The translations under genes and the position numbers were made by a program. The notes beneath the pieces were generated by a model. That model was not told the origin of the DNA, did no database searches, and saw only the letters and a list, made by a program, of their open reading frames with translations. Of a stretch of DNA of 64,000 nucleotides, positions 2,428-64,000 are shown in pieces. Each line of letters opens with the position of its first letter. The first letter of the stretch is position 1. This stretch comes from Pseudomonadota bacterium (GTDB lineage: Bacteria; CALINM01): contig JAOABK010000001.1 of the NCBI GenBank assembly GCA_026418415.1, positions 7,080-71,079 on the forward strand, written 5' to 3'.

Positions 2428-2429
2428 AG

Positions 2430-42075: not shown

Positions 42076-43212
42076 ATGAGATTTTTTGATAATATAATTG
42101 AAGGAATCTTTCTCTCAAGAAGAAATAGATTTGTCATAGAATGCCTGATTAATGGTATAAAAACAGAAGCTTATTTACCTAATCCTGGCAGATTGGTAGA
42201 GTTGTTATACAGAGGTGTAAAAATTTATTTGACTAAAGATCTTAATTTGGGAAAATTGAGATTTACTGTTATTGGTGTTAAGAAAGGCGATGACAATGTT
42301 ATGTTACATACCCATGTTTCAAACAAAGTTTTCAAGTATTTATTGGAAAAAAAGTTGTTAAGAGATTTAAAGGATTTTAAAATTCTTCACGAAGAATATA
42401 AGTATAATAACTCGCGATTCGATTTTTTATTGGAAGGTAAGTGTGATAAGAAGGTTGTCGAGGTTAAAACTTGTACACTCTATTACGATAATATAGCAAT
42501 GTTTCCAGATGCAGAGACTAAAAGAGGAACTAAACATCTAATTGAATTATCAAAAGTAAATGGTGCTATCGTTTTTTTAGTTCAATCAAAAAATGTTGAT
42601 TATTTTTTGCCTGAATTTAATATCGATTTTCAATTTGCAAATACTTTAATGAAATTAAAAGATAAAATCTTTGTTAAGGCATATGCAATAGAATGGAATA
42701 ATGATTTTTCTCTAAATCAAAATATTAAAGAATTAAAAATACCCTGGAGAATATTAGAGAATCATTTGGTTGATAGTGGCAGTTACTTCTTGATATTCAA
42801 GCTTAATGAAAACAAAAACATAAAAATTGGTGAAAGAGGTGATATCTTTTTTAAGGAAGGTTACTATATCTATGTTGGTTCTGGTAAAAAAAATTTAAAA
42901 AAAAGAATAGAAAGGCATAGAAGGATAAAAAAGAAAAAATTTTGGCACGTAGATTACTTCAGAGAAAATGCAATTTATTTAACATCAATAATTTTTAGAA
43001 CTCAGAAAGATTTAGAGTGTGAGCTTGCGAAAAAATTATTACAAGTTGCAGATTGGTCTATTAATGGTTTTGGTGCTTCAGATTGTGGGTGTGATACTCA
43101 TATGTTTGGGTTTTATAATAATCCCCTTGATTATGAGAATTTTAGGCAAGTGGTATTTCATTACAGAATAGGTATATTAAAGGAAGAGATTAATAATGGA
43201 CTTGAAATGTAG
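42076..43212 (+). CDS. sfsA: SfsA-family nuclease-like protein fused to C-terminal DUF123 (GIY-YIG-like) domain
   Basis: The N-terminal ~230 aa align to SfsA (RFVIECLING...AYLPNPGRL; FPDAETKRGTKHLIEL). The C-terminal ~140 aa carry the DUF123 signature GYYIYVGSGKKNLKKRIERHRR...FWHVDYF. Confidence 0.65.
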   Translation: MRFFDNIIEGIFLSRRNRFVIECLINGIKTEAYLPNPGRLVELLYRGVKIYLTKDLNLGKLRFTVIGVKKGDDNVMLHTHVSNKVFKYLLEKKLLRDLKDFKILHEEYKYNNSRFDFLLEGKCDKKVVEVKTCTLYYDNIAMFPDAETKRGTKHLIELSKVNGAIVFLVQSKNVDYFLPEFNIDFQFANTLMKLKDKIFVKAYAIEWNNDFSLNQNIKELKIPWRILENHLVDSGSYFLIFKLNENKNIKIGERGDIFFKEGYYIYVGSGKKNLKKRIERHRRIKKKKFWHVDYFRENAIYLTSIIFRTQKDLECELAKKLLQVADWSINGFGASDCGCDTHMFGFYNNPLDYENFRQVVFHYRIGILKEEINNGLEM

Positions 43213-45557: not shown

Positions 45558-46559
45558 ATGAAAATACAAAACTTTTTTTTCTTAATAATCTTTTCAGTAA
45601 TTTTGAGTTGCAGTTATTTGACGGAATCAAAGCCATTATTGAAACAATCTGAGATTGAGAAATTAATCGCTGGAAGAATTGATGCAGAATATATTGGGAC
45701 AGATAATTGTTTAAAAAACTGCCATGAAAAGGGAAATGAACACAAAAAGTTGGCAGATTATTTTAAGAAAAGTGTTCATGCAGAACAAATTAATATAGAT
45801 ACACACCTTCCTCTTGTTAATTGTGAAACATGCCATGGACCTGGTAGCATTGCTGTTGAAAACATAAAGGAAGTCAATGGAAAAAAACAGTGCGACTTTG
45901 ATAGTCTAATTAATATAAAGAAGTTGCCAGCTGAGGCAAAAAATCTAATATGTCTTAAATGTCATACAAAAGCCTCTTCACCTAATCTTGCTATGTGGAG
46001 AGGTTCTAAACATGATTTAGCTGGGGTTTCATGTAGTGATTGTCACAAACTACACAAATCCCCTTTGCAAAAAGTTGAGCATAACCAGCAGATTGAGCTA
46101 TGTTTGGGATGTCATAAGAAAATAAAGGTAGAGATTTCAAGTTTATCAAAGCATCCATTTCATGAAAGAAAAATTATCTGTACAGATTGTCACAACCCCC
46201 ATGGAAGCTTTACAAATAATCTTTTAAAAAAGGAGTCTCTTAGAGAAACTTGTGCTAATTGCCATACTGAAAAAGCTGGTCCCTATATTTTTGAGCATGC
46301 TGATTTGATGGATGATTGTAGTAACTGTCACGTTCCACATGGTTCGGTTAATGATAATCTTCTAAAAGTCAAAGAACCTATATTATGTTTAAGATGTCAT
46401 GAAGGTCATCATTCTTTTAGAAGTACTGCATTAAGCCCTGTCAATAAATTAAAATACTATAATAGATGTACTGACTGTCATCTATCAATTCACGGGACAG
46501 ACACTCCTTCTGGTTCAGCCACAACGTTGCCAAAGAATCAAGGGAGGATGTTAAGGTAG
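45558..46559 (+). CDS. Decaheme c-type cytochrome, MtrA/DmsE/PioA-like (periplasmic/lipoprotein)
   Basis: 333 aa with signal peptide and possible lipobox ILSC. Exactly 10 CxxCH motifs: CLKNCH, CETCH, CLKCH, CSDCH, CLGCH, CTDCH, CANCH, CSNCH, CLRCH, CTDCH. Confidence 0.85.
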   Translation: MKIQNFFFLIIFSVILSCSYLTESKPLLKQSEIEKLIAGRIDAEYIGTDNCLKNCHEKGNEHKKLADYFKKSVHAEQINIDTHLPLVNCETCHGPGSIAVENIKEVNGKKQCDFDSLINIKKLPAEAKNLICLKCHTKASSPNLAMWRGSKHDLAGVSCSDCHKLHKSPLQKVEHNQQIELCLGCHKKIKVEISSLSKHPFHERKIICTDCHNPHGSFTNNLLKKESLRETCANCHTEKAGPYIFEHADLMDDCSNCHVPHGSVNDNLLKVKEPILCLRCHEGHHSFRSTALSPVNKLKYYNRCTDCHLSIHGTDTPSGSATTLPKNQGRMLR

Positions 46560-46565
46560 GGATTT

Positions 46566-48443
46566 ATGAAAAAAAATATCATTCTGGTTTTTTTAATATT
46601 TTTTACATCAAATGTAGTATTAGCAGAAGATATTGTTTATAGAGAGTTTTATTTTGAAACTGGATACAAATTTTATTCAGTAGACGGTGCTGTTGACTTA
46701 GTCAATGAATATAAAGCTTCTCGTTCTTCGCCTTATTTCTCATTAACTTATAAAGATCTCTCTCCAAACGATAAAATAATGTTCGATGCATTAATTAATG
46801 AAAAAGATAATAGAAATATTGATTTACACTATATACACAAGGATTTGCTTAATATTGAATTTAGTAATCGCTCATTAGTACATAATTTAGATCACAAATT
46901 ACTTTTATATCACCCTGAAAAATATGATTTAAATCCTTCCACAAATTACAGGCTTGATTTTTTAAAAAACTATTTCTCTACAAAATATAAACCCTTTAAT
47001 TATCCCTTTCATTTAAAACTGATAATTGAAGATATTGAAAGAGATGGGACGGTACAAAAAATATTTTATGGAGCGAGAAGTTTGGACTTGAATATACTTT
47101 CTTTACCTCCAAACCTAAGAAACAACATCTTTTCGAGGGATAGGCAAATAGGTTTTGAAACAGAAAGAATTATAGCAACAATCGATGGAATTTTAGGAGG
47201 AGTTGGATTAGTTTTTGATCTCACATCTGAAAATTTTACTAACAAACATCATAATTCTCTTGATTATTTATTAAATTATCCAACAATAAATAAAAATGCT
47301 TATGAGTTGAAATTATATAGTAATCTTACCGGTCAGTTGAGTTGGGCTCTTGCTTTAAATCGCAGGGATGCAAAAAATCATAATAGAGATGAAATAGGAA
47401 GAGAAGGGGCAAGTGTAACCCAAACAGATACTGTAGCTACAGTTACTTATTATCCAAAGAAAAATTTAAAATTTACTTTAAAAGTTGGTTACTTAGATAG
47501 GGATCAGGATAATCCAGATACCGTGAGGTTTTTAAATAATGATATAGTTGGTATTAAGGATGCGGTGTCCTATTCTAAGAAAACGGCTGATTTTTCAGCA
47601 TGGTATGAAATATCATCCAAAGCAATTTTAAAATTAAATTTAAAAAGAAAGGAAATAGAAAGAAGCTTCAATTATTTTACACTACCGGAGTATTCTCATA
47701 CAAATACAGGTGTCTTGTCTTTAGAAGGCAGGTTAAATAAAAATTTTTCTTATAAACTTATACAGAAGGTCGAAAATAATCATAATCCATCATATAAAAA
47801 AATGCCCGAGATGCTTTACTCCACAGCAGTTAATCTTAACTATGATTTTAATATATTTTCAGGTATTTACTTACAAAGTGAGTATTTAATGTCAGAAAAT
47901 AATTCTGATATTGGATATTTTCGTAGAAGTAGGGAACACAAACACTTCTTGAACTGTTGGATTAATATAAGCGATGATTTAAATTTAAATTTATATGGTT
48001 ATTATAACAGTGAAAAATTCATATCAAATATTCAGTATGGTAGTTCAAACCCAACGTTTTTTTTAGATAAAGATGTTCCATACTCTTTTACGCTTTACCA
48101 AACAGGGCTAAATATTAGTAAGATTATAAATAAAAAACACAATTTATATGGAGACGTTAGTTATGTTCGTGGATATGGTACTTATTATCCCCATCTCTTT
48201 ATAGGAACAGTTACTAATCCAGGACCACCATTAGTAACTTATAATTTCAATACTTTAGGTTTAGATAGTTTGGCTTCTACGGATTTTTATCAATATGGAA
48301 TTTTATTGGGAAATAGTTATTCAATTGGAAAAAGATCAAGGGTTAGATTAGAAGCAAGCTTGAAGGATCATGTAGATAAAACCAATTATCCTAAAGAGGG
48401 AACTGTTAAGATGGTTTTTGTATCCTGGGAAATGAAATGGTAA
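46566..48443 (+). CDS. Outer-membrane beta-barrel protein, MtrB/PioB-like porin partner of the decaheme cytochrome
   Basis: 625 aa with signal peptide (VVLA-ED), alternating hydrophobic/Tyr-rich strand patterns, and a C-terminal OMP signature ...VFVSWEMKW. It begins 7 nt after the cytochrome stop. Confidence 0.7.
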   Translation: MKKNIILVFLIFFTSNVVLAEDIVYREFYFETGYKFYSVDGAVDLVNEYKASRSSPYFSLTYKDLSPNDKIMFDALINEKDNRNIDLHYIHKDLLNIEFSNRSLVHNLDHKLLLYHPEKYDLNPSTNYRLDFLKNYFSTKYKPFNYPFHLKLIIEDIERDGTVQKIFYGARSLDLNILSLPPNLRNNIFSRDRQIGFETERIIATIDGILGGVGLVFDLTSENFTNKHHNSLDYLLNYPTINKNAYELKLYSNLTGQLSWALALNRRDAKNHNRDEIGREGASVTQTDTVATVTYYPKKNLKFTLKVGYLDRDQDNPDTVRFLNNDIVGIKDAVSYSKKTADFSAWYEISSKAILKLNLKRKEIERSFNYFTLPEYSHTNTGVLSLEGRLNKNFSYKLIQKVENNHNPSYKKMPEMLYSTAVNLNYDFNIFSGIYLQSEYLMSENNSDIGYFRRSREHKHFLNCWINISDDLNLNLYGYYNSEKFISNIQYGSSNPTFFLDKDVPYSFTLYQTGLNISKIINKKHNLYGDVSYVRGYGTYYPHLFIGTVTNPGPPLVTYNFNTLGLDSLASTDFYQYGILLGNSYSIGKRSRVRLEASLKDHVDKTNYPKEGTVKMVFVSWEMKW

Positions 48444-49357
48444 AGAGATTTATCTTATTGATGATAATTTTTTTATTTATTATAGGCGATAGGTCCTATT
48501 CTAAGGAGAGAGTTGTTGCTGTAATTTTAGCATCTAATTTAGAAAAGTTTAAAATAGCCTATAATGAATTACAAAGAACGCTACAAGAACATAAAAAGGA
48601 TAGTTATGTTCAGATTGTTTTATCAACACCTAACCCTGATCCTGCTTCATGGGCAAATGCTTTAAAGAGGGCGGAAGGTATGGAAGTAGATTTAATTATT
48701 GCTTTTGGCGCTCCTCTTGCTTATACGGCTTTGAAGGAAAGAATATCAGTGCCTCTTTTGTATGTTGATGTCTATGAAAAGGGTATTCTCGATGCTTTTA
48801 AATCAAAACAGATGACTGGGATTTATAATGTTATTCCAATAACAACAGTTTTGAAGAATTTGTTAGCGTTAAAGAGTTTTAAAACCTTACATGTTCTATA
48901 TTGTCCTTTAGAGAAAGAGAGCGAAATACAAGCAGGAAAAATTAAAGAGTTAGCAGAATACGAAGGTATAAAAGTATCCCTACATCCTTTAAAAAGTGCT
49001 CAATCAGTTTATGATATAAGTATAAACAATACCGATGCAATTTTTTTAACATCATCTGTAATTTTAGAGATGGGTGCTAATAAGATAGCTCAGTTTGCAA
49101 TAGAAAAAGAGGTTCCTTTAGTTGGTGTTTCAGAGACTGTAACAAATGCAGGTGGACTTATGTGTGTTGCACCGGATGCTAAAATACAGGGTAGGTTAAT
49201 TTCAAATTTTTTGTTAAACTATATTGAAAAGGGTATTTTAACTAAGAGCGAACAGATTAAGGAAGTTAATTTTATACTAAATATGAAGACTGCAAAAAGA
49301 ATTAATATTACAATACCTTTTACAGTTTTAAATAACGTAACAAAGGTAATAAAATGA
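48437..49357 (+). CDS. Periplasmic substrate-binding protein (ABC_sub_bind / PF04392-like)
   Basis: Signal peptide and PBP-fold motifs (DLIIAFGAPLAYTA, VPLVGVSETVTNAGGLMCVAPD). The start overlaps the barrel stop by 7 nt. Confidence 0.65.
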   Translation: MVKRFILLMIIFLFIIGDRSYSKERVVAVILASNLEKFKIAYNELQRTLQEHKKDSYVQIVLSTPNPDPASWANALKRAEGMEVDLIIAFGAPLAYTALKERISVPLLYVDVYEKGILDAFKSKQMTGIYNVIPITTVLKNLLALKSFKTLHVLYCPLEKESEIQAGKIKELAEYEGIKVSLHPLKSAQSVYDISINNTDAIFLTSSVILEMGANKIAQFAIEKEVPLVGVSETVTNAGGLMCVAPDAKIQGRLISNFLLNYIEKGILTKSEQIKEVNFILNMKTAKRINITIPFTVLNNVTKVIK

Positions 49358-51408
49358 AAGAAAAGAGCATAAAAACACCATTATACACAACAGTATTTAT
49401 CTCAATAGCATTAGCTTCACTAATTACAGCAATAGTCATTACAATCAATTTTTATAGTGATTATAAAAATAATGTATATAAAACCATTCGAAATATAGGT
49501 AATAAATTTAGTGATGATTTGCAGAAGATGATTGCCTTTGGTTTAACTATTTATGATATACCTAATTTCCAAAATGATTTAAATGAGAAATTGAATGAGG
49601 AACCAAGTATAGCATATATAATTATAACTGAGATGGATGGAACAATTTTAGCAACCAATTCAAATACACAATTAAATCAAAAGTTTTTAAGTAAAGATAT
49701 GGAAGATGTTAATGTTAATAATGAGAGGGCTTTGAATTTTCAAATAAAGGTAAAAGATCCGGAAAGACAAAATGAATTAAGATACTTGATAAACATTGGT
49801 TTGAAAAAGGGTTTTTTAAGTAAAAAAATTTACGGTTCTTTAATGATGGTGCTTGCTGTATCATTTACCACTATTTTCACAGTTTTCTTTGTTTTTAAGA
49901 GAATTATTAATAAAAGAATTGTAGAACCATTAAAAGAACTTAAAGATGCTACAGAAAAGGTTACTAATGGAGAACTATCTGTTAGTCTAACCCCTGTTTT
50001 TAATGATGAAATTGGACTTGTAACAGACAACTTCTCTGCGATGGTTAAAGAAATCAAAGAGATACTGAATAAAATTAAGGATAGTATAGAAAAGCTCAGA
50101 AATATAGGCGATAGAACTGGAGAAATAAGTCAAACCGTTAGAGATGGTTCTTTTAAACAAAAAGAGGGCATAGACAACATAAGAAAGATTTACTCTGATA
50201 TAGAAGATAGAATAAAAGCCCTCAAAAACAAGGTAAATTCACTGAATGATTTTCTTGAGCTTACTACTTCTACATTTTTGGAATTATCTGCTTCTTCTGA
50301 AGAGATTTCAAAGCTTATGGAGGAACTTCTTAGTGTAGTAGTTAAAGTAGAAGAGGCTTATAATAAACTTAGAAATATAAACATAAAACTTGATGAAGGA
50401 GCAGTTCTTTTAGAAAGGGAAGTAGAAAATATTCTTTCCTTTGTAAATCAATTAGACGCTTCGGTCAGAATAACTCTTCAGAACATTAATGAAACTTCAA
50501 GGATGGCTGAAAAAATAAATAAATTGGCAGAAGAGAGTAAATGGGCAACAAAAAGTTCAATTGAAAGTGTCAATAAAATGGCTGAAGTAACATTAGAGAC
50601 TAAAAATGCCTTCGGAATATTAAGAAACAATATAAACAAAATAACAGCAATTTTAGATGTTATAAATGAGGTTGCTGAACAGACAAATATGTTGGCTCTT
50701 AATGCTGCAATTATTGCAACTCAGAGTGATGAAAGTGGAAGAGCATTTGCTATAGTCGCTGATGAAATAAAAAATTTGTCTCGAAGAACACAAAAATCTA
50801 CCCTTGAGATATCGAGTCTTATTTCAGATATTATGAATCAAACTGAAAATGTATATTTTAAGGTTCAAGAAAGCGTTAATGAAGGTAATGTAGTTCTGGA
50901 ACAATCAAGGAATATCGAAGAAAAGGTTGCTCAAATTATTGATTTAGTATATAAACTAACAGAAAGTATGGGACAGGTTCTAAAGGCATCAAACGAACAA
51001 TCTGAAGGGAGTTCAGCTTTAAGAAGGGGTGTAGAAGATTTAAAAAATATTTCTAAAACATTAATAAATGTAAAAGATGAAGCGGTTAAGGTGGGTAACA
51101 CTATTAATGAATTATTTGATTTTATAGTTAACGTTACTAATAAAGTAAACAACTCGGTAAGAGAACAAAATGCATCAATAGGGAGTGTTAAAGGTTCCTT
51201 TGTTGAATTAAGTAATTTTTCAAAGGATTTAGTTGAACATATAGATAAAGAGGAAAAGGAGATAAAAATCTCAGAAAAAGCTCTTGAAGATGTATTGAAT
51301 TTATCCGAAGAAAATGCGATTAAGAGTAAAAACTTAGAAGAAAAGTTGTTAGAAATAAAAGAACAAATTTCTCTTTTCAAGGATTTGACAAACAAATTCA
51401 GACTTTAA
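49354..51408 (+). CDS. Methyl-accepting chemotaxis protein
   Basis: Two TM helices flank a ~130-aa periplasmic domain, followed by HAMP and the highly conserved MCP signalling region (EQTNMLALNAAIIATQSDESGRAFAIVADEIKNLSRRT). ATGA overlap with the binding-protein gene. Confidence 0.85.
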   Translation: MKEKSIKTPLYTTVFISIALASLITAIVITINFYSDYKNNVYKTIRNIGNKFSDDLQKMIAFGLTIYDIPNFQNDLNEKLNEEPSIAYIIITEMDGTILATNSNTQLNQKFLSKDMEDVNVNNERALNFQIKVKDPERQNELRYLINIGLKKGFLSKKIYGSLMMVLAVSFTTIFTVFFVFKRIINKRIVEPLKELKDATEKVTNGELSVSLTPVFNDEIGLVTDNFSAMVKEIKEILNKIKDSIEKLRNIGDRTGEISQTVRDGSFKQKEGIDNIRKIYSDIEDRIKALKNKVNSLNDFLELTTSTFLELSASSEEISKLMEELLSVVVKVEEAYNKLRNINIKLDEGAVLLEREVENILSFVNQLDASVRITLQNINETSRMAEKINKLAEESKWATKSSIESVNKMAEVTLETKNAFGILRNNINKITAILDVINEVAEQTNMLALNAAIIATQSDESGRAFAIVADEIKNLSRRTQKSTLEISSLISDIMNQTENVYFKVQESVNEGNVVLEQSRNIEEKVAQIIDLVYKLTESMGQVLKASNEQSEGSSALRRGVEDLKNISKTLINVKDEAVKVGNTINELFDFIVNVTNKVNNSVREQNASIGSVKGSFVELSNFSKDLVEHIDKEEKEIKISEKALEDVLNLSEENAIKSKNLEEKLLEIKEQISLFKDLTNKFRL

Positions 51409-51527: not shown

Positions 51528-54023
51528 TTGGAAAGCTTAAATTTTGTGGGAAAAGTTGTTGAAGTTAATATCGAAGAAGAGGTTAAACAATCCTATCTCG
51601 ACTATGCTATGAGTGTTATTGTTGGAAGAGCTCTTCCCGACGCTAGGGATGGACTGAAGCCTGTTCATAGAAGAATACTTTATGCCATGTATGACATGGG
51701 AAATGAATGGAATAAACCTTATAAAAAATCAGCACGTATAGTTGGAGATGTTATAGGTAAATATCATCCCCATGGTGATCAAGCAGTTTATGATGCAATA
51801 GTTAGAATGGCTCAAGACTTTTCAATGAGAATGCCACTTATTGATGGGCAAGGTAATTTTGGGTCTATTGATGGAGATCCACCTGCTGCTATGCGTTATA
51901 CAGAAGTCAGGATGAAACAGCTCTCTTCAGAATTACTTGCAGATATAGATAAAGATACTGTGGATTTTGTTCCTAATTATGATGGATCTTTAAAAGAACC
52001 AGTTGTTTTACCCGCTAAATTTCCTAATTTACTTGTCAATGGTGCTTCAGGAATAGCAGTCGGAATGGCTACTAATATTCCCACTCACAATCTTGTTGAA
52101 TGTATTGATGCTACAATTTATTGTATTGATAATCCTGATTGCTCAATTGAAGATATCATAAAAATAATGCCAGGCCCCGATTTTCCAACATACGGAATTA
52201 TTTATGACAATGGTGATATATTTAATGCCTATAAAACAGGGCGAGGTACAATAAAAATTAGGGGTAAAATTGAGGAAGAAGCCCTAAAGGGAGATAAGAC
52301 AGCTCTTGTAATAACAGAGTTACCCTATCAGGTTAACAAGGCTGAATTAATAAAAAAAATAGCTGAATTAGCGAGAGATAAAAAAATAGAAGGGATATCA
52401 GACATAAGAGACGAGTCTGATAAAGATGGTATACGTGTTGTGATTGAATTAAAAAGAAATGTGCCGGGTTTAATAATTAAAAACCAGCTTTTTAAATATA
52501 CACAACTTGAACAGTCTTTTGGTATTAATATGATTGCCCTTGTTAAGGGACAACCTAAGCTACTAAATCTAAAAGAACTTATATTTGTTTTCATTGAACA
52601 TAGAAAAGAAGTTGTTACAAGAAGAACACTATTTGATTTAAATGATGCAAAAAAAAGAGCTCATATACTTGAAGGTCTGAAAATAGCCATAGATAATTTA
52701 GACTTAACGATAAAATTGATTAGAGAATCTAAATCACCAAAAGAGGCCAAAACAGCCTTAATGACAAATTTGAGTCTCAGTGAAGAACAGGCTCAAGCAA
52801 TACTTGACATGAAGCTTCAAAGACTAACGAACATGGAAAGGGAAAAGATTATTGAAGATTATGAAAAAATAATAAAGTTGATAGCAGAATTAGAAGGCAT
52901 ACTAAAAGATGAAAGGAAAATTTATGATATTATTAAAAAAGAGTTAGAAGAGATAAAAAATAAATATGGTGATAAAAGAAGAACAATAATAGAAGCACAA
53001 CAAATTGAACTTGACAAAGAAGATTTGATCCCCGAAGAACAGGTTGTAGTAACGATTACCCATAGGGGATTTATAAAAAGAACACCAGTAAATGAATATA
53101 AGAAACAAAAAAGAGGTGGCAAAGGGAAAATCGGGTTAACACTAAAGGAAGGGGATTTTATAAGAGATCTTTTCATAGCCTCAACCCATGATTATATTCT
53201 TGCTTTTACTAACTTAGGAAGAATGTACGTAAGCAAAACCTATGAATTTCCTGAAGCAGATAGGACCTCCTATGGAAAAATTATTACTAACTATTTCCCT
53301 TTGAAAGAGAACGAAAAGGTAATTAACTTAGTTTCAGTTAGTACTTTTGATACTGATAAAGAAATATTTTTTGCTACAGAAAAGGGAATTGTAAAAAAGA
53401 CCGCACTGAGCTTATTTAAAAATGTAAGAAAGACTGGAATTAATGCTATAAACATACATGATGATGATTTTCTTGTGTCTGCTGCTATAGTAGGAATTGA
53501 TGAAGATATAATACTCTCCACTAAAAATGGAAAGAGTATAAGATTTGGAGTCGAGCAAGTAAGAAGCATGGGAAGAACTGCTGCTGGAGTTAAGGGAATT
53601 GAGTTGAGTGAAGGAGATAAGGTTGTCTCTATGGATGTTATAACCAAGGATGATGATAGCTCACTTTTAACTGTGACAACTTTAGGGTATGGCAAAAGAA
53701 CTAAGATCAAAGAGTATAGAGTTCAAAATAGAGGGGGAAAAGGTATTTTGACTGTCAGACTGACAGAAAAAAATGGAAATGTTATGGGAGTTTTACACGT
53801 AAAAGATGATGATGAGATATTGCTCATTTCAAGTAGTGGAAAAATTGTAAGATTGTCGGTCAAAAGTAGCATACCTGAATATGCAAGAAATAGCCAGGGT
53901 GTAAAACTAATAGATTTACAGGGCGATGAGAGGATAGTGAGCATTGGTAAGATAATAGAGAAGGAAGAAATCGAAGAAAATGAGACAGAAGGGGAAAATG
54001 GCGATGAAAATAAACTATTATAA
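51528..54023 (+). CDS. gyrA: DNA gyrase subunit A
   Basis: Active-site region [26 protein letters not shown] and C-terminal beta-pinwheel repeats. Probable TTG start after GGAGGGG. Confidence 0.95.
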
Positions 54024-55324: not shown

Positions 55325-55645
55325 TTATATAAAAATCTAATTTTTATAATTCAGATATTGAATCGCTTTATTTTCTAATTTTTTATTTCAATAATTTTGC
55401 TTTTCAGGGTATAAATTTTAAAAATTTTATTAAAACGTTAAAATTATAAAAATTTAATTGACAAATTTTAATTATAGAAGTAGGATTGCGATTAGAAATG
55501 TTTAATATAATAAAAAAGATATCTCAACCCTTTTTAGTATCTGTTAAATTTTTACCGTTTTTTAACAATAATATTGATCAAGCTGCTTTTTTTAGTTTTC
55601 AAATTTTACAAAAAATTAAATTCAACGTATTTAGTGAGGAAAAAT

Positions 55646-58600
55646 GTGAAACCTAAAAGTTTAAAATTTTTATTTTTATTTTTTTTTATAGTTTTCTTTG
55701 TTAAAACTGCCTTTAGTGTTGATCCACCACATGATAGATTTAGCTGTAATAATTGTCATGGAAACAATTTGATCTCAACTAAAAATGGTGGACTGGATTT
55801 AAGCCGGATGTGTTTAGACTGTCATAAGCCCGGTGGCTATGGAAAGCCTGTAAACACAAAACCTGCAAACCCCTATGGTACAGCTGATTTAATTATACAA
55901 AGGCACAAAGGAACGGAGCATGCCTTTTTAGGTGGTGACAACAATCCTTTAGCGAAAGCGGTTAGCCCCTCTGGTGACGAGTTTTATGGTCATAATGTAA
56001 CTGGAGTTATAACATGCGCTTCCTGTCACAATCCCCATGTTCAAAATAATGAAGATGGAAAGTTTTTACGAGTGAAATTAGGTAAAACAGACGAACTATG
56101 TTTAAGATGTCATGTAGATATGAACCAAAAACCTAATGGATACTCCCATCCAGTGAACGTTTCTCTCAATAAAGATGGTTTCTTTGTTCTGCCTCAGTTT
56201 AGTTCCTTAAGAAAGGTTTATGAGAAAAAGGAAAATAATTTAACCTGTACAGTATGCCATAAAACACATAATGGTTTTTCAAAAATAACATCTTATGGTC
56301 ATTCTGGTGATGGCTTTCTTGGAAGAACTGAAATTGATGAATGGTTGTGTTTACAGTGTCATAAAAAACCTGTTCATGGAAATTCAAAGGGGAGGCCAGA
56401 GCCTTTATGCAAAGATTGCCACACAATGCATAACCCAGGGAATAACATCAAATTGATAAAAAATAGTATAAACTTTAACGGTAATACAAAGGAAGTTAAT
56501 TTTAAAAACAATTCTTTAGCGACTGACTTTTATAATTTAGAGGGCAGTGGTGTTTGTCAGGTTTGTCATAGAAACACAAAATACTTTAAAAACTATACTG
56601 CATCTAAGTTTATAGTTACAGGAACATCCATTCACAACCCAGATAATCTAATTTGTACAGAATGTCATTCCCATGGGAATTTGGTTAATTTTCAAGCTCC
56701 AAAGGCTAAAGAAAAGCCAAATTTTGAAAAAGATGCTTTTAAAGGATGTGCGGGATGTCATGGTTTTCCACCTACATTAAATTCTTTAGGTAATAATGGA
56801 CTTGCAAGAAATGAAGGTGGAACGGGTTCTATGAATGTTGGTGCTCATATAAAACATGCAACAGAAACTGGTTATTCATTTGCTTGTAATACATGCCATA
56901 AGGGTGGAATGCCATTAACACCAATATACGATAAGAAGATTCAAATTGGTTTCGAGCTTTTTAATGGGCTTTTAAAAGGAGGTTTTTTTGAGGGAAGGAG
57001 CTCTATTAAAAATGGTTATAGTTTTTCAAGTGGTAATGGGGAAACAAATGTCTCTAATGGTAGCACAAGCAAATGCACAAACATATACTGCCATAGCAAT
57101 GCGAATCCTATCGACAAAGCAACAGTTTACAAAGAGATAGGGTGGAATAATAAAAATATTTCATGTAGGGATTGTCATAATGATATTACATATCCCGATG
57201 GTCTAAGTAGTTATCATAAAAAACATTTACAAAGTGGCTATAACTATAAATGCGAGGATTGTCATAAAGAAACAGTAATAGGAAATAATGAAATTAAGAA
57301 TAAGACCAAGCATGTAAATAGTATAAAAGACGTTGTATTTAAGCTAACAGGCGATTATGGTGTTGATAAGTCTTGTACTGTTTATTGTCATAGCGATGGA
57401 AAGGGAGGCCAACCCGAACAACAGGTTAGATGGAATATTAGTTTAACAATATCCTGCGATTCATGTCATAGAGGCAGGCTTAATGATTTTAAACAAATGA
57501 CTTCTTTTGGTCATAATAGGTTGGTGAGTAAAAACTGGATTAGAAAATATCCTTGCTATTATTGCCATGATGATACTGTTGATGAAAATGGAAATATAAA
57601 AAGTTATACAAAACATATAAACCAGATTAAAGATGTCAAAATGAGTTCTAAATGGGCAATCCCAGGAAGACCAGAACCAGCATACATAACATCTACAAAG
57701 GTTTGTACTAATGTATATTGCCACAGTGATGGGACTACAAATCCAGAAGCAGTTAAACCATTTTCATGGAATGAGGGAAGGGCTAATTGTGATACCTGTC
57801 ATGGACATCCGAGAGGTACTTGTAATAATGCAGGTTGTCATGATGGCATAGCGAGAGAATTAAAGATAGATTGGAAACCCGAGGACATATGGAAATCTTC
57901 TGTGCCAATGTATCCAAATGAAGGAGCTGGAAAGCCAAGAGCTAACTCTCATGCAAGACATATAGAAACTAATTTTACCTGTGATAAATGTCACGCAACT
58001 ACAATAATTGGTGGAGATTGTTTAAGTTGTCATAAAAATGGTATCCCTCCTGGAAGCATGACAGAGGCACCTCATCTTAATGCGAATTATCATGTAAATG
58101 GTAGGAAGGACGTTGTATTCAAAGATGGTGGTGTTTATAACCCTATAACTAAGACATGTTCGAATACTAATTGTCATACTGGTGGTAGCGATCCACAGTG
58201 GGGTGGATCAGTTAATAGCGCTGTTATATGCCTTAGCTGTCATGGAACAACAGGTGGCGATATTGATAATTTTGATGCCTTCGATGGTACTCAAGCTAAG
58301 ATAAACCTAACACAATGGGCTGTCGCAGGACACGGAAGAAAAGCATCTCATGGCAATTATCCTTCAGGAAATCCTCCCGCAAATTTTCCGGGAAATCCCT
58401 GTTGGTATTGTCATGATAATACAGTGCTTCACAAGAAAGCTGATAATCCCTATAGGTTAAAATTACATAATCAGTTTGAAAGAAGGTTTGATAAAGAGTG
58501 TGTTTACTGTCATATGGAGAAGAAAGAAGAAGAGTGTTTAAAGTGCCATAATAGCGTGGAATCACTTGCACCACAGATGAATTCAGCATCTGTTGTAGCA

Positions 58601-60904
58601 AAACATTCAAATAATATATATCTTAATGGATGTCTTAACTTACAATGCCATCCTAATGATGACAAAATTCACAAAACAGGTTCTGGCTTCTGGAATTACA
58701 CCTTGAAGGTACAGATTAAAAAACAGTATGTGTTTATGGGTGTATGTCTTAAATGCCATGATGATGATAGTGAGGGGCAATGTGAATCCTGTCATGCAAT
58801 TGATAATAAGCATAAGTTGGGTTATGATCCTGGTACTGGATTTATAAAACCACAAAAAGCAAAAGCTGCTGGTACTCACTATGGTTATAAGCATTATCTA
58901 CAGGGTTCTACTAAGGGAGGAAAATTTTGTTGGGATTGTCATGATCCTCATGGTGATACAAATATTTATATGATACACGATAAAGTAGCTGTTGAAACAG
59001 ATGGTATATTCGGAAAACCAGTTCAAAGAGCGAGTGTTGTATTTACAAGAAAACAAAGTGGCAGTGATTATGTGAAAATAAACGCACCCTATAATGGTAT
59101 TTGCAATGTTTGTCACAGCTATGGAAGCCAGCATTACAGAAAAGATGCTGGAGATGGACACCAGTTAGGAAGGGTTTGTACAGAATGTCATAATCACAGA
59201 TTTACCGATAGTCATTCTTCAGGACAACAATGTAATACCTGTCATTTAAACAAACCTATACCAAGACACTCATCCTTCGGACTACCAAGAGATTGCACAA
59301 AATGCCACAATGGTACTATTGGAAGAAGAACAAATGTTATGGCACAGTTAAAAGGAAATTCTCACCATATTCAGAATGTAAACGTAACAAACAGACATTG
59401 TTATGCTTGTCATTGGGAAGCAACCCCTGAAGGGATTGTGAATAATGATTATCATGAAGGCTACAATACTAAAACCCATTCTTCAAGGAAGGATGCAAAA
59501 GTAGATCTTGTTGTTTGGGGACCCAATAAAAGACCAACGGTTTATAAACTCTATTCTTCCGCGGTAGTATTCGTTGCAATTAGTAGTATTGGAACTCCAA
59601 GAGAAAGGGAGCAGGTAGGGAATATTTCTCAGCATTGTTTGAGCTGTCATAGTGATAAAAATAATGATACACAGCCATTTAATGATTGTAAAACACCCAA
59701 TCAATATGCATGGGATAGAAGCAGTATCGAAAGTAGATTTAAGAATAAAGAAACAACTAAATGGGGTAAGTATAATACTTCAGGGGCAGCAAAGAAGGAT
59801 ATAAATAAAGCACTATCTGCCCATGGAAATGCAAAAGCAAATGCTGGAGGCTTTGATCCAGCAAATGGCTTGGATGGAACGATTCCTAATACAAGAAATG
59901 GAAATGCAAACGTGGAATGCTTTGATTGTCATAATTCTCATGGTTCATTAGTAGGTGGAAACACTTCGAGTTATATATCCTTTAATGGAACAAAAAATGG
60001 AGGTATTTTAAAAGATACAACAGCAGGAAGAAGTGGTTATCCAATAACATATAGAGCACAGGGTAAGAGTGATGGTATTAATCCCTATTCTGTTCAAGCA
60101 GGACAATGCTTTGATTGTCACATGACGGAAAATGGTGGAGTTACAACACCTTGGGGGTACAAGTCAACCTTTGGAGCAACTCAACCTATTATGGGATATT
60201 ATGATTCAATCAAATTTGGTGAAGGAGATTCTGGTGCGAAGAAGAGATTTAGTTTTAGAAATCCCCTTAATATAAAGGGAGGGCATTTTAAAGCAAGTTC
60301 TAATCTTGTTAATACACCAGATAAACAAATAGAAGGATTGTGTACTAATTGCCATGATCCCCATGGTGTAAGCCCATCCTTTGGTGAAGATAGATTTTAC
60401 GCAGTTCCATTGCTCAAAGGGACATGGCTCACATCTCCTTATAAAGAAGATATTCCACCAACTCATGGCCCAACAGGTGGTAGTTATTTATATGATAGTC
60501 CTCAAAATCATACTAATCTTGATTCAACTTCTGTATTTCCAAATGGTAAAGCAGATGAACCAGAAGAAAAGTTTGCAGGTCTATGTCTTAAGTGCCATCC
60601 AAAAAACAAACTAACTGATGGAGTAAATCAGAATACTGCATGGAAGAGCCTTGATAGGGTTCATGAGACTGTGAAAGGTTGGGGAAAGAATACTAAGCAT
60701 AATTTTGTATGCTCAAAGTGTCATGCACCTCATACAAGCTTATTACCCAGACTCATGGTAACTAACTGTATTGATTATAACCACAGAGGAATGGTAGCTT
60801 CTGGTGGGTATCCAAATGGTGGTCGAGGTGGTAGTTATCCACAATGTCATCCTCAAGATGGGAGCTGGCCTAAGAGTTATTGGAACTGGAAGACTCCATG
60901 GTAA
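55646..60904 (+). CDS. Giant secreted multiheme c-type cytochrome (~1,753 aa, ~36 CxxCH + 6 CX3-4CH motifs)
   Basis: GTG 55646 follows GAGGA, with a Sec signal peptide (FFVKTAFS|VDPP). I counted 36 canonical CxxCH plus six C-x(3,4)-CH variants (e.g. CTNIYCH, CTVYCH, CTNVYCH). The track ORF starts further upstream at 55574. Confidence 0.85.
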   Translation: MKPKSLKFLFLFFFIVFFVKTAFSVDPPHDRFSCNNCHGNNLISTKNGGLDLSRMCLDCHKPGGYGKPVNTKPANPYGTADLIIQRHKGTEHAFLGGDNNPLAKAVSPSGDEFYGHNVTGVITCASCHNPHVQNNEDGKFLRVKLGKTDELCLRCHVDMNQKPNGYSHPVNVSLNKDGFFVLPQFSSLRKVYEKKENNLTCTVCHKTHNGFSKITSYGHSGDGFLGRTEIDEWLCLQCHKKPVHGNSKGRPEPLCKDCHTMHNPGNNIKLIKNSINFNGNTKEVNFKNNSLATDFYNLEGSGVCQVCHRNTKYFKNYTASKFIVTGTSIHNPDNLICTECHSHGNLVNFQAPKAKEKPNFEKDAFKGCAGCHGFPPTLNSLGNNGLARNEGGTGSMNVGAHIKHATETGYSFACNTCHKGGMPLTPIYDKKIQIGFELFNGLLKGGFFEGRSSIKNGYSFSSGNGETNVSNGSTSKCTNIYCHSNANPIDKATVYKEIGWNNKNISCRDCHNDITYPDGLSSYHKKHLQSGYNYKCEDCHKETVIGNNEIKNKTKHVNSIKDVVFKLTGDYGVDKSCTVYCHSDGKGGQPEQQVRWNISLTISCDSCHRGRLNDFKQMTSFGHNRLVSKNWIRKYPCYYCHDDTVDENGNIKSYTKHINQIKDVKMSSKWAIPGRPEPAYITSTKVCTNVYCHSDGTTNPEAVKPFSWNEGRANCDTCHGHPRGTCNNAGCHDGIARELKIDWKPEDIWKSSVPMYPNEGAGKPRANSHARHIETNFTCDKCHATTIIGGDCLSCHKNGIPPGSMTEAPHLNANYHVNGRKDVVFKDGGVYNPITKTCSNTNCHTGGSDPQWGGSVNSAVICLSCHGTTGGDIDNFDAFDGTQAKINLTQWAVAGHGRKASHGNYPSGNPPANFPGNPCWYCHDNTVLHKKADNPYRLKLHNQFERRFDKECVYCHMEKKEEECLKCHNSVESLAPQMNSASVVAKHSNNIYLNGCLNLQCHPNDDKIHKTGSGFWNYTLKVQIKKQYVFMGVCLKCHDDDSEGQCESCHAIDNKHKLGYDPGTGFIKPQKAKAAGTHYGYKHYLQGSTKGGKFCWDCHDPHGDTNIYMIHDKVAVETDGIFGKPVQRASVVFTRKQSGSDYVKINAPYNGICNVCHSYGSQHYRKDAGDGHQLGRVCTECHNHRFTDSHSSGQQCNTCHLNKPIPRHSSFGLPRDCTKCHNGTIGRRTNVMAQLKGNSHHIQNVNVTNRHCYACHWEATPEGIVNNDYHEGYNTKTHSSRKDAKVDLVVWGPNKRPTVYKLYSSAVVFVAISSIGTPREREQVGNISQHCLSCHSDKNNDTQPFNDCKTPNQYAWDRSSIESRFKNKETTKWGKYNTSGAAKKDINKALSAHGNAKANAGGFDPANGLDGTIPNTRNGNANVECFDCHNSHGSLVGGNTSSYISFNGTKNGGILKDTTAGRSGYPITYRAQGKSDGINPYSVQAGQCFDCHMTENGGVTTPWGYKSTFGATQPIMGYYDSIKFGEGDSGAKKRFSFRNPLNIKGGHFKASSNLVNTPDKQIEGLCTNCHDPHGVSPSFGEDRFYAVPLLKGTWLTSPYKEDIPPTHGPTGGSYLYDSPQNHTNLDSTSVFPNGKADEPEEKFAGLCLKCHPKNKLTDGVNQNTAWKSLDRVHETVKGWGKNTKHNFVCSKCHAPHTSLLPRLMVTNCIDYNHRGMVASGGYPNGGRGGSYPQCHPQDGSWPKSYWNWKTPW

Positions 60905-60917
60905 AGGAGACAGACTA

Positions 60918-63900
60918 ATGATTAAACGTTTGAACATAGCAGTTCTACTAATTTTATTTTTAACCAGTTCACTTTTTGCTTCTGGTGGTGAACAGATATG
61001 TAAAAAATTAGATATAAATAATGTTGCATATCCCACTGCTTCGGTCAGGGATTTTGAAGGCAACATAATAGTTGCAGGATATAAGAGCATATCAATGAGT
61101 GATGAATCTTTTTATATTGCTAAGATAAGTTCTGATTGTTCTGGCATTTTATGGAGTTATGAAGAAAATCCTTCCAACCAATCAGATAGATTAGTTTCAG
61201 TAACAACAGATTTTGAGGGTAATGTAATAGCAGTGGGATATATATTATATGGTTCAAACTTTGATATAAAGATTTTAAAATTGAATAAAGAAACGGGAAG
61301 TATTGTTTGGACTGAAAGGTATAATGGTTTAGCAAATCTTGATGATTTTCCAGTGGCTGTTAAAGTCGATAGCGTAGGAAATGTTTATGTTGCTGGATAT
61401 TCAAGGAATACATCGGGAAACGATGATTTTCTGTTAATAAAATATTCGAAAAATGGTGGTCTTCCATTGTGGGTTCAAACTTTTAATAGCGCTTATAACA
61501 AGGATGATAGAGCCACATCTCTTGATATAAAGTCTGACAGTGTTATCATCGCAGGATATTCAGATAACGGATCAGATCTTGATATGCTTCTTATAAAATA
61601 TGCCCTAACGGGAGAATTGCTTTGGAGTAGAAGATACATAGGTAATGCTAACAACGAAGATAGAGCAGTAGGAGTTAAAATTGACGATAATGGAGATGTA
61701 TTATTAACTGGATTTACAACCAATAGCAATGGAAATAAAGATATCTATATTGGGAAATACTTCAAAGATACAGGAGTTCCAATATGGGAGAAAATTTACA
61801 ATGGTGGTTATGATGACGAACCTTACTCTATAGCAATTGGGGAGGGTAATAATGTTTATCTTACAGGTTATACATGGACTATTGAACATCACACACAACT
61901 AACCACAATGAAAATATCCTCTTTAAATGGTGAGATTATTTGGCAAAGAAATTTTTCCCTATCAGAGGATATAACGTCAGTGGGGATTGATATTACTGTT
62001 GAGAATGAAGAAGATGTTTATGTAACAGGATATTTGGTTAGGGGTACAAACTATAATATTCTTACTTTAAAATATCACAAAATTTTGGGTAATCAAGTAT
62101 GGTCTGTAGAATATGATGGTGATGCAGGTAAAAATGATAGACCTATTGGTATTTTTATAGGTTTAGATGGTAAGGTAATTGTAGCTGGGTGGTCAGAAAC
62201 AGGTATTAATGAACCTCATTTTTTAATCCTTAAGTATGAGCCGGGTAGCATAAATGCACCAACTAATTTAACTGCAGAAGTACTTTCTAACTCACAAGTT
62301 AGATTAAGTTGGAGTGATAACTCTAACAATGAAGATTCATTCAAAATTGAAAGAAAAACTGGTGATTTAGGTAATTGGCAAGAAATTGCATCTCTATCAG
62401 CAAATACAATAAACTATATAGATAACTCAGTCTCTGCAAATACAAAATATTATTATAGAGTAAGAGCCTACAGCACTACCTTTGGTTATTCTCATTATAG
62501 TAATGAAACCAAAGTCATTACAACCGTTATAACCTTTGAACAACCAACTTGGGTGTATACGTATAATGGCTCTGGGAATAATGATGATTATGCTAATGCT
62601 ATAGCTATAGGTCCAGATAGTAATCCCGTTATTGCAGGATTTAGCTTTTCTTCAATCTCTGGCTTTGATTATGTAACTATGAAGTTGAATAGAAGCAATG
62701 GGGCTTTAATCTGGTCAAGGTCCTATGATGACCCCGAAAATGATACAGATATAGCAACATGTATAGATGTTGATAATAACAATGATGTTATTGTTTCTGG
62801 TTTTGCTTCTCTATTTAATCCTAATGTTGGATACAATACAAACGATATAATGACAATAAAGTATTCGTCAAATGGAGCTTTGCTGTGGAGTGATGCTTTT
62901 AGTGGTCCAGGCAATAATGATGATAGATCAGTTGCAATATCTGTTTCTAAAGATGCTTCGGGCAATCCCTTTATTCTTGGTTATGGTAAAAACGCATCAG
63001 GGAATGACGACATTTATCTTATAAAATATAATGCTTCTGGAACAAGACAGTGGTCAAAAATTTACAATGGCGGTGGAGATGACTACCCATCTTCATTTGT
63101 GATAGATAAGAATGGCGATGTTATTATAGCAGGTTATGTTACAAGAGGTGGTAACTTTGATTGGTATGTTAGTAAGTATAAAAACAGTGATGGTACCATC
63201 TTATGGACCTATTTTTATGATGAAGTCGGGCTTGAAGATAAGGCGCTCTCAATTACAGCGGATAAAAATGGTGATATATTTGTAACTGGTTTTATATCAA
63301 AGTCTGGTAGTATTAAAGATATTCAGTTGATAAAACTTTCTGGCGGTAGTGGTGGGCTTTTGTGGCAGAAAAAGTTTAACAGAAACTCAGGGGATAATGA
63401 GGCAATAAAGGTTTTAATAGACCCAGTTGATGGTGATATAGTTATTGCGGGTTCAATAACAAGCATAGAAGGAGATAAGGATATATATACTGCGAAGTTT
63501 AAAAATAGCGATGGTTCATTAATTTGGGAAAGGACGGTTTCAAGACTTTCAATAAACGATATTTTGGCTGATGCAGTTGTTGATATTAGCGGTAATGTCT
63601 GTCTTGGAGGTAATTCTGGACAATGGGAAGGACAGGATATCGTGGCAATAAAGTTTGATCATGAAGGAAATCTTTTAGGTGCTTCATTATATAACGGTGT
63701 GGCCAATAGACAGGATGGTGTTGAGAAAATAGCAGTTAATAGATTTGGAGAAACATTCTTAGTTGGTTATACCACTACTGCTAATGGCGACACAGATTTT
63801 CTTATATTCAAATGCGGTTTAGATCCTATTCAAGTTCCAACACCTTTAAGTGTAACAGCTTCATATAATTCTTTGGTCATTAATTGGGTAGATAATTCTT

Positions 63901-64000
63901 TTTCTGAGCTGGGTTATCGAATTGAGAGAAAAACAGGGCCATGCTCAAGCAATGATAATTTTCAAGTTATTACACAAACACCTCCTAATGTAACATCCTA
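60918..64000 (+). CDS. Large secreted beta-propeller (SBBP-repeat) / fibronectin-III surface protein, 3'-partial (runs off window)
   Basis: Not in the ORF track because no stop is reached. ATG 60918 follows AAGGAGA, with signal peptide MIKRLNIAVLLILFLTSSLFASG. More than 20 repeats of ...GN(V/I)Y(V/L)(T/A)GY... D(I/F)(L/Y)LIKY...G...W and at least two FN3-like modules (LSWSDNS..YYYRVRAY). Confidence 0.7.
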   Translation, partial: MIKRLNIAVLLILFLTSSLFASGGEQICKKLDINNVAYPTASVRDFEGNIIVAGYKSISMSDESFYIAKISSDCSGILWSYEENPSNQSDRLVSVTTDFEGNVIAVGYILYGSNFDIKILKLNKETGSIVWTERYNGLANLDDFPVAVKVDSVGNVYVAGYSRNTSGNDDFLLIKYSKNGGLPLWVQTFNSAYNKDDRATSLDIKSDSVIIAGYSDNGSDLDMLLIKYALTGELLWSRRYIGNANNEDRAVGVKIDDNGDVLLTGFTTNSNGNKDIYIGKYFKDTGVPIWEKIYNGGYDDEPYSIAIGEGNNVYLTGYTWTIEHHTQLTTMKISSLNGEIIWQRNFSLSEDITSVGIDITVENEEDVYVTGYLVRGTNYNILTLKYHKILGNQVWSVEYDGDAGKNDRPIGIFIGLDGKVIVAGWSETGINEPHFLILKYEPGSINAPTNLTAEVLSNSQVRLSWSDNSNNEDSFKIERKTGDLGNWQEIASLSANTINYIDNSVSANTKYYYRVRAYSTTFGYSHYSNETKVITTVITFEQPTWVYTYNGSGNNDDYANAIAIGPDSNPVIAGFSFSSISGFDYVTMKLNRSNGALIWSRSYDDPENDTDIATCIDVDNNNDVIVSGFASLFNPNVGYNTNDIMTIKYSSNGALLWSDAFSGPGNNDDRSVAISVSKDASGNPFILGYGKNASGNDDIYLIKYNASGTRQWSKIYNGGGDDYPSSFVIDKNGDVIIAGYVTRGGNFDWYVSKYKNSDGTILWTYFYDEVGLEDKALSITADKNGDIFVTGFISKSGSIKDIQLIKLSGGSGGLLWQKKFNRNSGDNEAIKVLIDPVDGDIVIAGSITSIEGDKDIYTAKFKNSDGSLIWERTVSRLSINDILADAVVDISGNVCLGGNSGQWEGQDIVAIKFDHEGNLLGASLYNGVANRQDGVEKIAVNRFGETFLVGYTTTANGDTDFLIFKCGLDPIQVPTPLSVTASYNSLVINWVDNSFSELGYRIERKTGPCSSNDNFQVITQTPPNVTS

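Follow-up and report, generated by a model that had tools for sequence, protein, structure and literature searches.

We analysed a window of 64,000 nucleotides (contig JAOABK010000001.1, positions 7,080 to 71,079 of the forward strand) from the Pseudomonadota bacterium assembly GCA_026418415.1. Its main element is a gene for a giant multiheme c-type cytochrome, followed directly by the start of a second gene, which encodes a giant secreted protein free of hemes and continues past the end of the window. The features of the two genes, in window coordinates, are as follows.

55646-60904 (+): giant multiheme cytochrome c gene; 1,752 amino acids (aa), 42 CX2-4CH sites, stop codon TAA at 60902-60904
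55636-55648 (+): Shine-Dalgarno sequence GAGG (55636-55639) and start codon GTG (55646-55648), from the sequence and from the aligned start in the related locus L084
55646-55717 (+): predicted Sec signal peptide (SPase I type), aa 1-24, from sequence inspection
55718-57373 (+): lineage-variable, heme-rich N-terminal region, aa 25-576, 14 heme sites, from low identity and Pfam matches
56885-58243 (+): TIGR01904-type repeat zone (CxxCH ... CX3-4CH ... CxxCH), aa 414-866, from TIGR01904, PF09698 and motif positions
57374-60901 (+): conserved family core, aa 577-1752, 28 heme sites, from alignment conservation
59288-60901 (+): C-terminal module of ~540 aa, aa 1215-1752, with 8 CxxCH and a long-loop C...CH, ending in WNxxTPW, from homologue search and AlphaFold2 (AF2)
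60767-60850 (+): Cys1708 ... Cys1734-His1735 pair (C-X25-CH), invariant in alignments
60905-60917 (+): 13-nt intergenic spacer with AGGAG at 60905-60909, from the sequence
60918-64000 (+): partner gene, 5' part of 1,027 codons from ATG 60918, continuing past the window; a secreted giant by its domain matches

The longest open reading frame (ORF) of the region spans 55574-60904 on the plus strand and counts 1,776 codons from a TTG. The in-frame GTG at 55646 is likely the actual start codon, as it aligns with the called start of the 83%-identical homologue in L084. Read from this GTG, the gene runs uninterrupted for 1,752 aa, in agreement with a first-pass annotation that had described a single 5.3-kb gene of about 1,750 aa. 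In DNA of 30% GC, the probability of meeting 1,776 codons without a stop is ~4e-66. We found no internal DNA repeats within the gene, so that repeat-driven misassembly is not suggested, and collinear homologues in two relatives have practically the same length (1,753 aa). Comparison with the 73%-identical relative gave a dN of 0.20 and a saturated dS (at least 2), corresponding to a dN/dS of at most ~0.1. The length of the open frame, the absence of repeats, the equal length of the relatives and a dN far below dS together establish that the gene is real, intact and under purifying selection. By the same evidence, the idea that the frame was misassembled from smaller cytochrome genes, or that it is a decaying gene, is effectively refuted. 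GC at third codon positions (GC3) is 0.23, as in the neighbouring housekeeping genes, and recent horizontal transfer was rejected on this ground; the slightly raised overall GC stems from codon position 2 and thus from amino-acid composition. Antisense and out-of-frame ORFs of 80-150 aa inside the giant genes (in our window at 57461-60466, minus strand) clustered across loci, but were rejected as shadow ORFs, which are conserved because the sense gene is. An exact-sequence database look-up of the giant protein returned no record.

A script count of heme-attachment motifs gave 36 CxxCH, 1 CxxxCH and 5 CxxxxCH, a total of 42 sites with a mean of one every 41.7 aa, while the protein's own content of Cys and His would lead one to expect 0.24 CxxCH by chance. 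The recount reproduces the earlier tally of 36 CxxCH and six CX3-4CH variants at one per ~42 residues. The N-terminus, MKPKSLKFLFLFFFIVFFVKTAFS/VDPP, displays a charged n-region, a hydrophobic core and A-F-S at positions -3 to -1, as expected for the Sec signal peptide that had been proposed before. It holds no Cys and is therefore not a lipoprotein signal; the first Cys of the protein is residue 34, which lies within a CxxCH. No transmembrane-like stretch was present in the mature protein, whose mass is 190.9 kDa in the apo form and ~217 kDa in the holo form with 42 hemes. A motif scan detected no CxxCK motif in the giant cytochrome, and three Cys lie outside the 42 motifs, namely C1348, C1708 and C1734. 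As judged from its sequence, the protein is a Sec-exported cytochrome whose 42 heme-attachment sites are canonical or nearly so, and the first-pass annotation is supported in that one intact gene encodes a giant, Sec-exported multiheme cytochrome of the c type.

The TIGR01904 model matched the protein with 82.6 bits (cutoff 27) over four stretches, and PF09698 with 58.4 bits (cutoff 21.7) over three. By these profile matches, the giant is a typical member of an annotated, uncharacterised family, the 'CxxxxCH/CxxCH domain c-type cytochromes'. A database search returned 274 homologues, of which the top two are 83% and 73% identical, followed by ~30 collinear ones at 44-58% identity; annotated collinear homologues come from Citrifermentans pelophilum, Geobacter sp. 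DSM 9736, Trichloromonas, Geobacteraceae and Desulfobulbaceae. Full-length homologues carry 32-53 heme motifs in 1,477-2,403 aa. With one genome per GTDB species, we confirmed 297 relatives by tblastn, often with several paralogues in a genome, and the best 80 of the 297 belong mostly to Geobacteraceae/Desulfuromonadales and Nitrospirae/Thermodesulfovibrionia. The statement that cytochromes this large are rare can therefore not be upheld: together with the 221 cluster representatives of the C-terminal module described below, these numbers describe a large annotated family, and genes of this type are not rare.

Conservation is distributed unevenly along the protein. With the two close relatives left aside, family identity per 50-aa block is 5-30% up to residue 550, 39% in residues 551-600, and 41-69% in most blocks from residue 601 to the end, across Desulfuromonadia and Nitrospirota. 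In the N-terminal region, 8 of the 14 motifs are conserved. This region includes a stretch at aa 228-373 resembling the MtrC/MtrF-type pentaheme domain, the best stretch for PF22113 (MtrC/MtrF pentaheme domain II/IV; 81.4 bits, cutoff 30), a similarity at the level of the domain only, as well as c3/c7-like stretches. The c7-type model PF14522 matches the giant with 121 bits over four stretches, and c3 models match too. A recurrent arrangement is a CX4CH (or CX3CH) followed ~24-40 aa further on by a CxxCH, as in the pairs 477/507, 577/604, 687/715, 838/862 and 996/1034. In the core, all 28 motifs are at least 90% conserved, and so are 30 His outside the motifs and 5 Met. Thirty His and five Met would provide enough axial ligands for all 28 core hemes to be six-coordinate, and the core hemes thus look like electron-transfer rather than catalytic hemes. 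A single-sequence search of PDB found no chain at E<=0.01; a profile search of PDB gave weak, generic c3/c7/reaction-centre matches to the N-terminal part and none to the core. AF2 prediction of residues 553-1752 (1,200 aa) from an alignment of 36 sequences yielded an unusable model (predicted local distance difference test, pLDDT, 44.5; predicted TM-score, pTM, 0.30).

The last ~540 aa are a widely shared 9-heme module without a solved structural relative. A HMMER search with residues 1095-1752 against 1.84 billion representatives of 50%-identity clusters gave 570 matches at E<=1e-3; of these, 221 reach E<=1e-30 and represent several architectures. A stretch of ~520 aa (residues ~1215-1725) is C-terminal in some of these proteins and sits mid-protein or near the N-terminus in others; where it is not terminal, it is followed by FN3-like (PF16656), LamG (PF13385), DUF2341, SusE-like or Ig-like domains. 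Identity within the module is 45-58% across phyla and architectures. AF2 modelled it with a pLDDT of 72.8 and a pTM of 0.80, and a fold search of PDB with the C-terminal module found no neighbour. Neither this fold search nor PDB sequence and profile searches revealed homology to a solved filament subunit of the OmcS/OmcE/OmcZ type. The giant ends in YWNWKTPW, an instance of WNxxTPW. This motif is internal in 21 of 61 homologues; it thus marks the end of the fold, and we rejected it as a sorting tag or beta-signal.

Close to this end, Cys1708, Cys1734 and His1735 are invariant, in 24/24 and in 62/62 homologues, with a loop that varies from 25 to ~80 residues. Judging from this conservation, the pair could be a 43rd heme site of a non-canonical, long-loop kind, or a disulfide beside a conserved His. 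AF2 was unconfident across aa 1708-1735, and no conserved heme lyase gene was seen in the related neighbourhoods. The remaining free Cys, Cys1348, at first seemed near-invariant and was considered as a key ligand or disulfide partner, a role that is weakened by its conservation of <90% in the alignment of 62 sequences.

The conserved partner of the giant cytochrome is the next gene, which encodes a secreted, heme-free propeller/FN3 giant and has its own ribosome-binding site. The first 1,027 residues comprise a signal peptide, an SBBP/delta-60 beta-propeller, FN3, a second beta-propeller and FN3 again, and contain no heme motif. No terminator-like site was found between the two genes, and from this, the 13-nt gap and the AGGAG we infer that they are co-transcribed. 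By tblastn, a partner homologue lies directly 3' of the cytochrome in 70 loci, that is, in 70 of the 71 with room for it; apart from L038, the partner-negative loci have at most ~0.5 kb of sequence left beyond the cytochrome match. L038, from a metagenome-assembled genome (MAG) of an uncultured Polyangiaceae, has ~4.7 kb of downstream sequence without a partner homologue and is the sole exception to the pairing. In the 73% relative and in C. pelophilum, the gene calls show the pair as well. Complete partners measure about 1,900-3,300+ aa, the gaps between cytochrome and partner are mostly <100 nt, and the divergence of the cytochrome core correlates with that of the partner (Spearman 0.51, n=68). 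All-against-all ORF clustering of 81 loci brought out no other universally conserved neighbour, and by tblastn none of the upstream genes in our window, including those for a decaheme cytochrome and a barrel protein described below, is conserved beside the cytochrome in related loci.

Several further observations concern the partner and its surroundings. Full-length partners end in ...TTP[AS][YW]xxGDxTC(x)-COOH after the final FN3, as seen in L001, L004, L007-L009, L011, L015, L019, L024, L028, L035, L042, L052, L058, L063 and others; this tail, which may serve in sorting, in a cross-link or in a disulfide, belongs to the portion of the gene beyond the end of our window. Distant homologues of the double propeller in Bacteroidota and Ignavibacteria carry export domains of the type IX secretion system (T9SS). 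In 13 of the 41 loci with a complete partner, the partner gene is followed by one for a CarboxypepD_reg-like secreted protein (~250-290 aa), and then sometimes by one for a NosD-like beta-helix protein of 670-825 aa. Upstream, a subset of loci has NHL-repeat proteins and sigma-54 two-component regulators (response regulators or histidine kinases). Loci with such accessory neighbours are L001 (23103-23870), L004, L007-L009, L011, L019, L049, L060, L063 and L071, as well as L082 and L083.

In the present analysis we defined a giant-cytochrome/propeller-partner subfamily by a collinear 28-heme core, a WNxxTPW end and a propeller/FN3 gene downstream, all of which were found at this locus. The closest genome with the cassette is 'Deltaproteobacteria bacterium SIS170217_bin_314' (GCA_037442505.1). 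As for the host, its GyrA (51528-54023) is 72-91% identical to metagenome proteins and at most 60% identical to those of Thermodesulfobacteriota/Syntrophaceae MAGs. No description was found in literature searches that covered the family, the gene pair, SBBP domains together with multiheme proteins, and DUF2341 together with cytochromes. The family is thus already known at the level of annotation, and it is the conserved cassette and the module that may be new.

Upstream of the giant gene, three features are relevant to its regulation or to its proposed redox partners.

45558-46559 (+): DmsE-family decaheme lipoprotein, 333 aa, from TIGR03508 (248 bits, cutoff 192.2) and a lipobox
46566-48443 (+): probable outer-membrane barrel protein, 625 aa, from a signal peptide and a C-terminal aromatic residue
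55458-55486 (+): candidate sigma-70 promoter, TTGACA-17 nt-TAGGAT, with a 10/12 match to the consensus and TTGACA at 55458-55463

The promoter region had earlier been described as holding a TTGACA and no clean -10 element. The TTGACA is indeed present, and with TAGGAT, 17 nt on, as candidate -10 element it makes up the best upstream match of the sigma-70 kind, although sigma-70-like matches in this AT-rich upstream region are at chance level (33 found, 28 +/- 5 expected). Both hexamers fall in islands conserved with L084, the 83% relative that likewise has rlmH upstream, while the surrounding intergenic DNA has diverged; this footprint is one of two sequences. An imperfect, AT-rich tandem repeat of 28 nt (55413-55476; 2.3 copies, 77% matches) overlaps the candidate -35 element. 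No sigma-54 promoter was found upstream of the giant gene.

The decaheme protein contains 9 CxxCH and 1 CxxxCH. Its gene, that of the barrel, and those of an ABC-type substrate-binding protein (SBP)-like protein and a methyl-accepting chemotaxis protein (MCP) are tightly packed on the plus strand at 45558-51408, the last three overlapping by 4-7 nt (48437/48443, 49354/49357). From this packing, the stretch looks like one operon that would link a chemoreceptor with a porin-cytochrome pair. Elsewhere, the window consists of AT-rich (~30% GC) housekeeping chromosome, including mutL, miaA, miaB and polX. At 42076-43212 (+), one ORF joins SfsA (OB and nuclease-like domains) to a C-terminal DUF123, an unusual fusion.

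The reading that we favour, with a probability of roughly 55%, is that the cytochrome is a heme wire or capacitor anchored at the cell surface or in the matrix, where it is held by the giant adhesin-like protein. The two genes, presumably co-transcribed, would give rise to proteins that cooperate beyond the cytoplasmic membrane, with the cell surface or the extracellular matrix as the likeliest site. In this arrangement, the propeller/FN3/DUF2341 giant could serve as a scaffold or adhesin that binds mineral, polysaccharide matrix or a partner cell, and the cytochrome as a heme wire in a single polypeptide, as an electron store, or as both. At the spacing of OmcS, ~0.8 nm per heme, a roughly linear chain of 42 hemes would reach ~30 nm. 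Electrons would arrive in trans from the periplasm, possibly via some porin-cytochrome conduit, though not specifically the one 7 kb upstream. A location at the surface or in the matrix is favoured by the fusion of the module, in other proteins, to surface domains of the partner's type, by the adhesin-like character of the partner and by its secreted distant homologues. The role in extracellular electron transfer that had been proposed in the first-pass annotation thus stays the most plausible one, but with the propeller/FN3 giant as the partner instead of a conduit.

A number of points weigh against such a surface wire. A Sec signal by itself means delivery to the periplasm, and the pair is not encoded with a secretion system or a sorting signal; WNxxTPW, being internal in a third of the homologues, supplies no C-terminal sorting tag. 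The NosD-like beta-helix, NHL and CarboxypepD_reg neighbours represent domain types that are also found in periplasmic proteins. When we compared the partner directly with the module-fusion proteins (a Rosetta-stone test), matches were limited to the level of the DUF2341 and FN3 domains. So high a degree of conservation as in the module would be more usual for an enzyme, or for a surface with a specific docking role, than for a generic heme wire. The linearity of the heme chain is an assumption; AF2 of the 1,200 aa gave the low pLDDT noted above. Our literature search found no data on localisation, expression or heme loading for any member of the family. A more far-reaching form of the proposal would make the cytochrome and the propeller/FN3 giant an undescribed, cross-phylum 'electro-adhesin' that is independent of porin-cytochrome conduits, with a module of new fold that docks on, or is fused to, surface-binding domains and that contains an unprecedented C-Xn-CH heme (loop 25-80). 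We put this forward tentatively and think it somewhat unlikely in its entirety.

Among the alternatives, the one raised in the first-pass annotation was that the giant is the natural extracellular partner, an MtrC/OmcA analogue, of an MtrAB-like conduit ~4 kb upstream, docking on the decaheme and barrel proteins encoded at 45558-48443. The upstream pair does have the makings of a conduit, with a decaheme protein well above the DmsE-family cutoff and carrying a lipobox, and an adjoining barrel-like protein. It lies on the same strand of the same window as the giant, which has an MtrC/MtrF-type PF22113 stretch, and an extracellular giant would need some conduit to feed it. The distance from the end of the barrel gene (48443) to the start of the giant gene is, however, 7.2 kb and not ~4 kb, and five unrelated genes, all on the plus strand, lie between them: the SBP-like gene, the MCP gene, gyrA, a tetratricopeptide-repeat (TPR) gene and rlmH. 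Moreover, homologues of the decaheme and barrel genes are found near the giant in 0 of 79 related loci, the 73%-identical one included, and the conduit pair is translationally coupled to the SBP-like and MCP genes instead. A likeness to MtrC holds at the pentaheme stretch, whereas the other defining features of MtrC/OmcA are missing: the giant has no lipoprotein signal, it has 42 sites and not 10, and it is not adjacent to genes of the mtrAB type. We consider a dedicated link to this conduit quite unlikely, although the two might be coupled functionally in trans, and the proposed link should not be carried forward.

The two proteins might also work without leaving the periplasm: the cytochrome would store electrons as a very large capacitor or span the periplasm as a wire, with the propeller protein as a scaffold there. 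A Sec signal as the only recognisable export determinant would fit such a role, as would the beta-helix, NHL and CarboxypepD_reg proteins of related loci and the c7-type (PF14522) domains of the giant, which are typical of periplasmic Geobacter cytochromes (PpcA, GSU1996). We nevertheless judge a periplasmic role unlikely, given that partners of 2,000-3,300+ aa made of SBBP propellers, FN3 and DUF2341 resemble secreted adhesins, that their distant homologues have T9SS export domains, and that other proteins join the module to surface domains (LamG, SusE-like and Ig-like). Finally, the 9-heme module could be an enzyme, namely a terminal reductase or oxidase that acts on a substrate in the periplasm or outside the cell and is supplied by the N-terminal heme wire, with a special role for the long-loop C...CH site as for heme 8 in MccA. 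That the module keeps 45-58% identity across phyla and architectures, far above that of the N-terminal wire, would be in line with catalysis, and so would its heme density of ~1 per 60-70 aa, which is like that of octaheme enzymes, the invariance of the unusual Cys...Cys-His pair, and the precedent of catalytic multiheme proteins with unusual ligation (PMC13510729). On the other hand, the conserved His and Met suffice to make every heme six-coordinate, there is no match in sequence or fold to HAO, ONR, OTR, NrfA, MccA or any other solved chain, CxxCK is absent, and Cys1348 is not conserved in the wider set of 62 sequences. A catalytic role is thus very unlikely in our estimation, and a surface- or matrix-anchored wire or capacitor remains the reading that we prefer.

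Giant multiheme cytochromes recur in genome surveys of metal-reducing and syntrophic bacteria, and we know of none with an assigned role. The giant gene described here is itself ordinary within its family, but the family is large, cross-phylum, structurally unmatched and experimentally approachable. It is now defined in a testable manner by a 28-heme core, a terminal module of ~540 aa and a near-obligatory giant adhesin-like partner, and it extends beyond Geobacterales to Nitrospirota and to an uncultured AT-rich lineage. Cultured carriers (C. pelophilum, G. hydrogenophilus, Geobacter sp. OR-1 and Geothermobacter hydrogeniphilus) make genetics and biochemistry feasible. If the surface-anchored wire proves true, it would constitute a third solution to long-range electron transfer, besides small cytochromes that polymerise and decaheme-capped porin-cytochrome conduits.

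The nearest known systems are the TIGR01904/PF09698 giants of Geobacterales (C. pelophilum, Geobacter sp. DSM 9736, Geobacter sp. OR-1, G. hydrogenophilus), which share with the present protein a core at 44-58% identity, a common motif pattern, the WNxxTPW end and the downstream propeller/FN3 partner. They differ in that the present host is of an AT-rich uncultured lineage, and in the N-terminal 550 aa, which are specific to the lineage. In a survey of Desulfuromonadia cytochromes, the same strains stood out as unusually rich in high-heme cytochromes, and the family and its partner are not described there (PMC11492766).

MtrC, OmcA and MtrF of Shewanella resemble the giant in their proposed place at the extracellular end of electron transfer and in the PF22113 stretch. 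Those proteins are, however, four-domain lipoproteins of about 650-750 aa with 10 hemes, encoded beside or acting on mtrAB, while the giant has no lipobox, is more than twice as long and comes with a propeller partner instead. Against the DmsE/MtrA decaheme model (TIGR03508) it scores 47.9 bits, below the cutoff of 192.2. The MccA site, CX15CH/CX17CH, likewise combines a His with two Cys set apart by a long loop, towards the C-terminus of a multiheme module. In the giant, the loop is longer and variable, heme attachment at the site is putative, and the protein has no similarity to MccA in sequence or fold.

The polymeric c7-type cytochromes of G. sulfurreducens, GSU1996 with 12 hemes and GSU0592/GSU2210 with 27, are proposed nanowire or capacitor proteins. 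Like the giant, they string c7-like heme domains together in one polypeptide, and the giant has a weak profile match to PDB entry 3oue_A (E 0.007). They are smaller, are considered periplasmic, and lack the CX4CH motifs, the C-terminal module and the propeller partner. A model of a 27-heme wire has been presented (PMC11492766).

Very large cytochromes have been found in other organisms as well, and they too, by their descriptions, combine very high heme counts with a predicted extracellular location and domains of surface structures. In ANME-2, giant cytochromes are fused to S-layer domains. 'Desulfuromonas soudanensis' encodes DSOUD_0664, a 69-heme cytochrome predicted to be extracellular (PMC4914508). 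The cassette described here differs from both in that the surface domains reside in a separate, co-encoded protein, with fusion being the arrangement of a sister subfamily, and it differs from ANME-2 in that these domains are propeller, FN3, LamG and DUF2341 domains rather than those of an S-layer.

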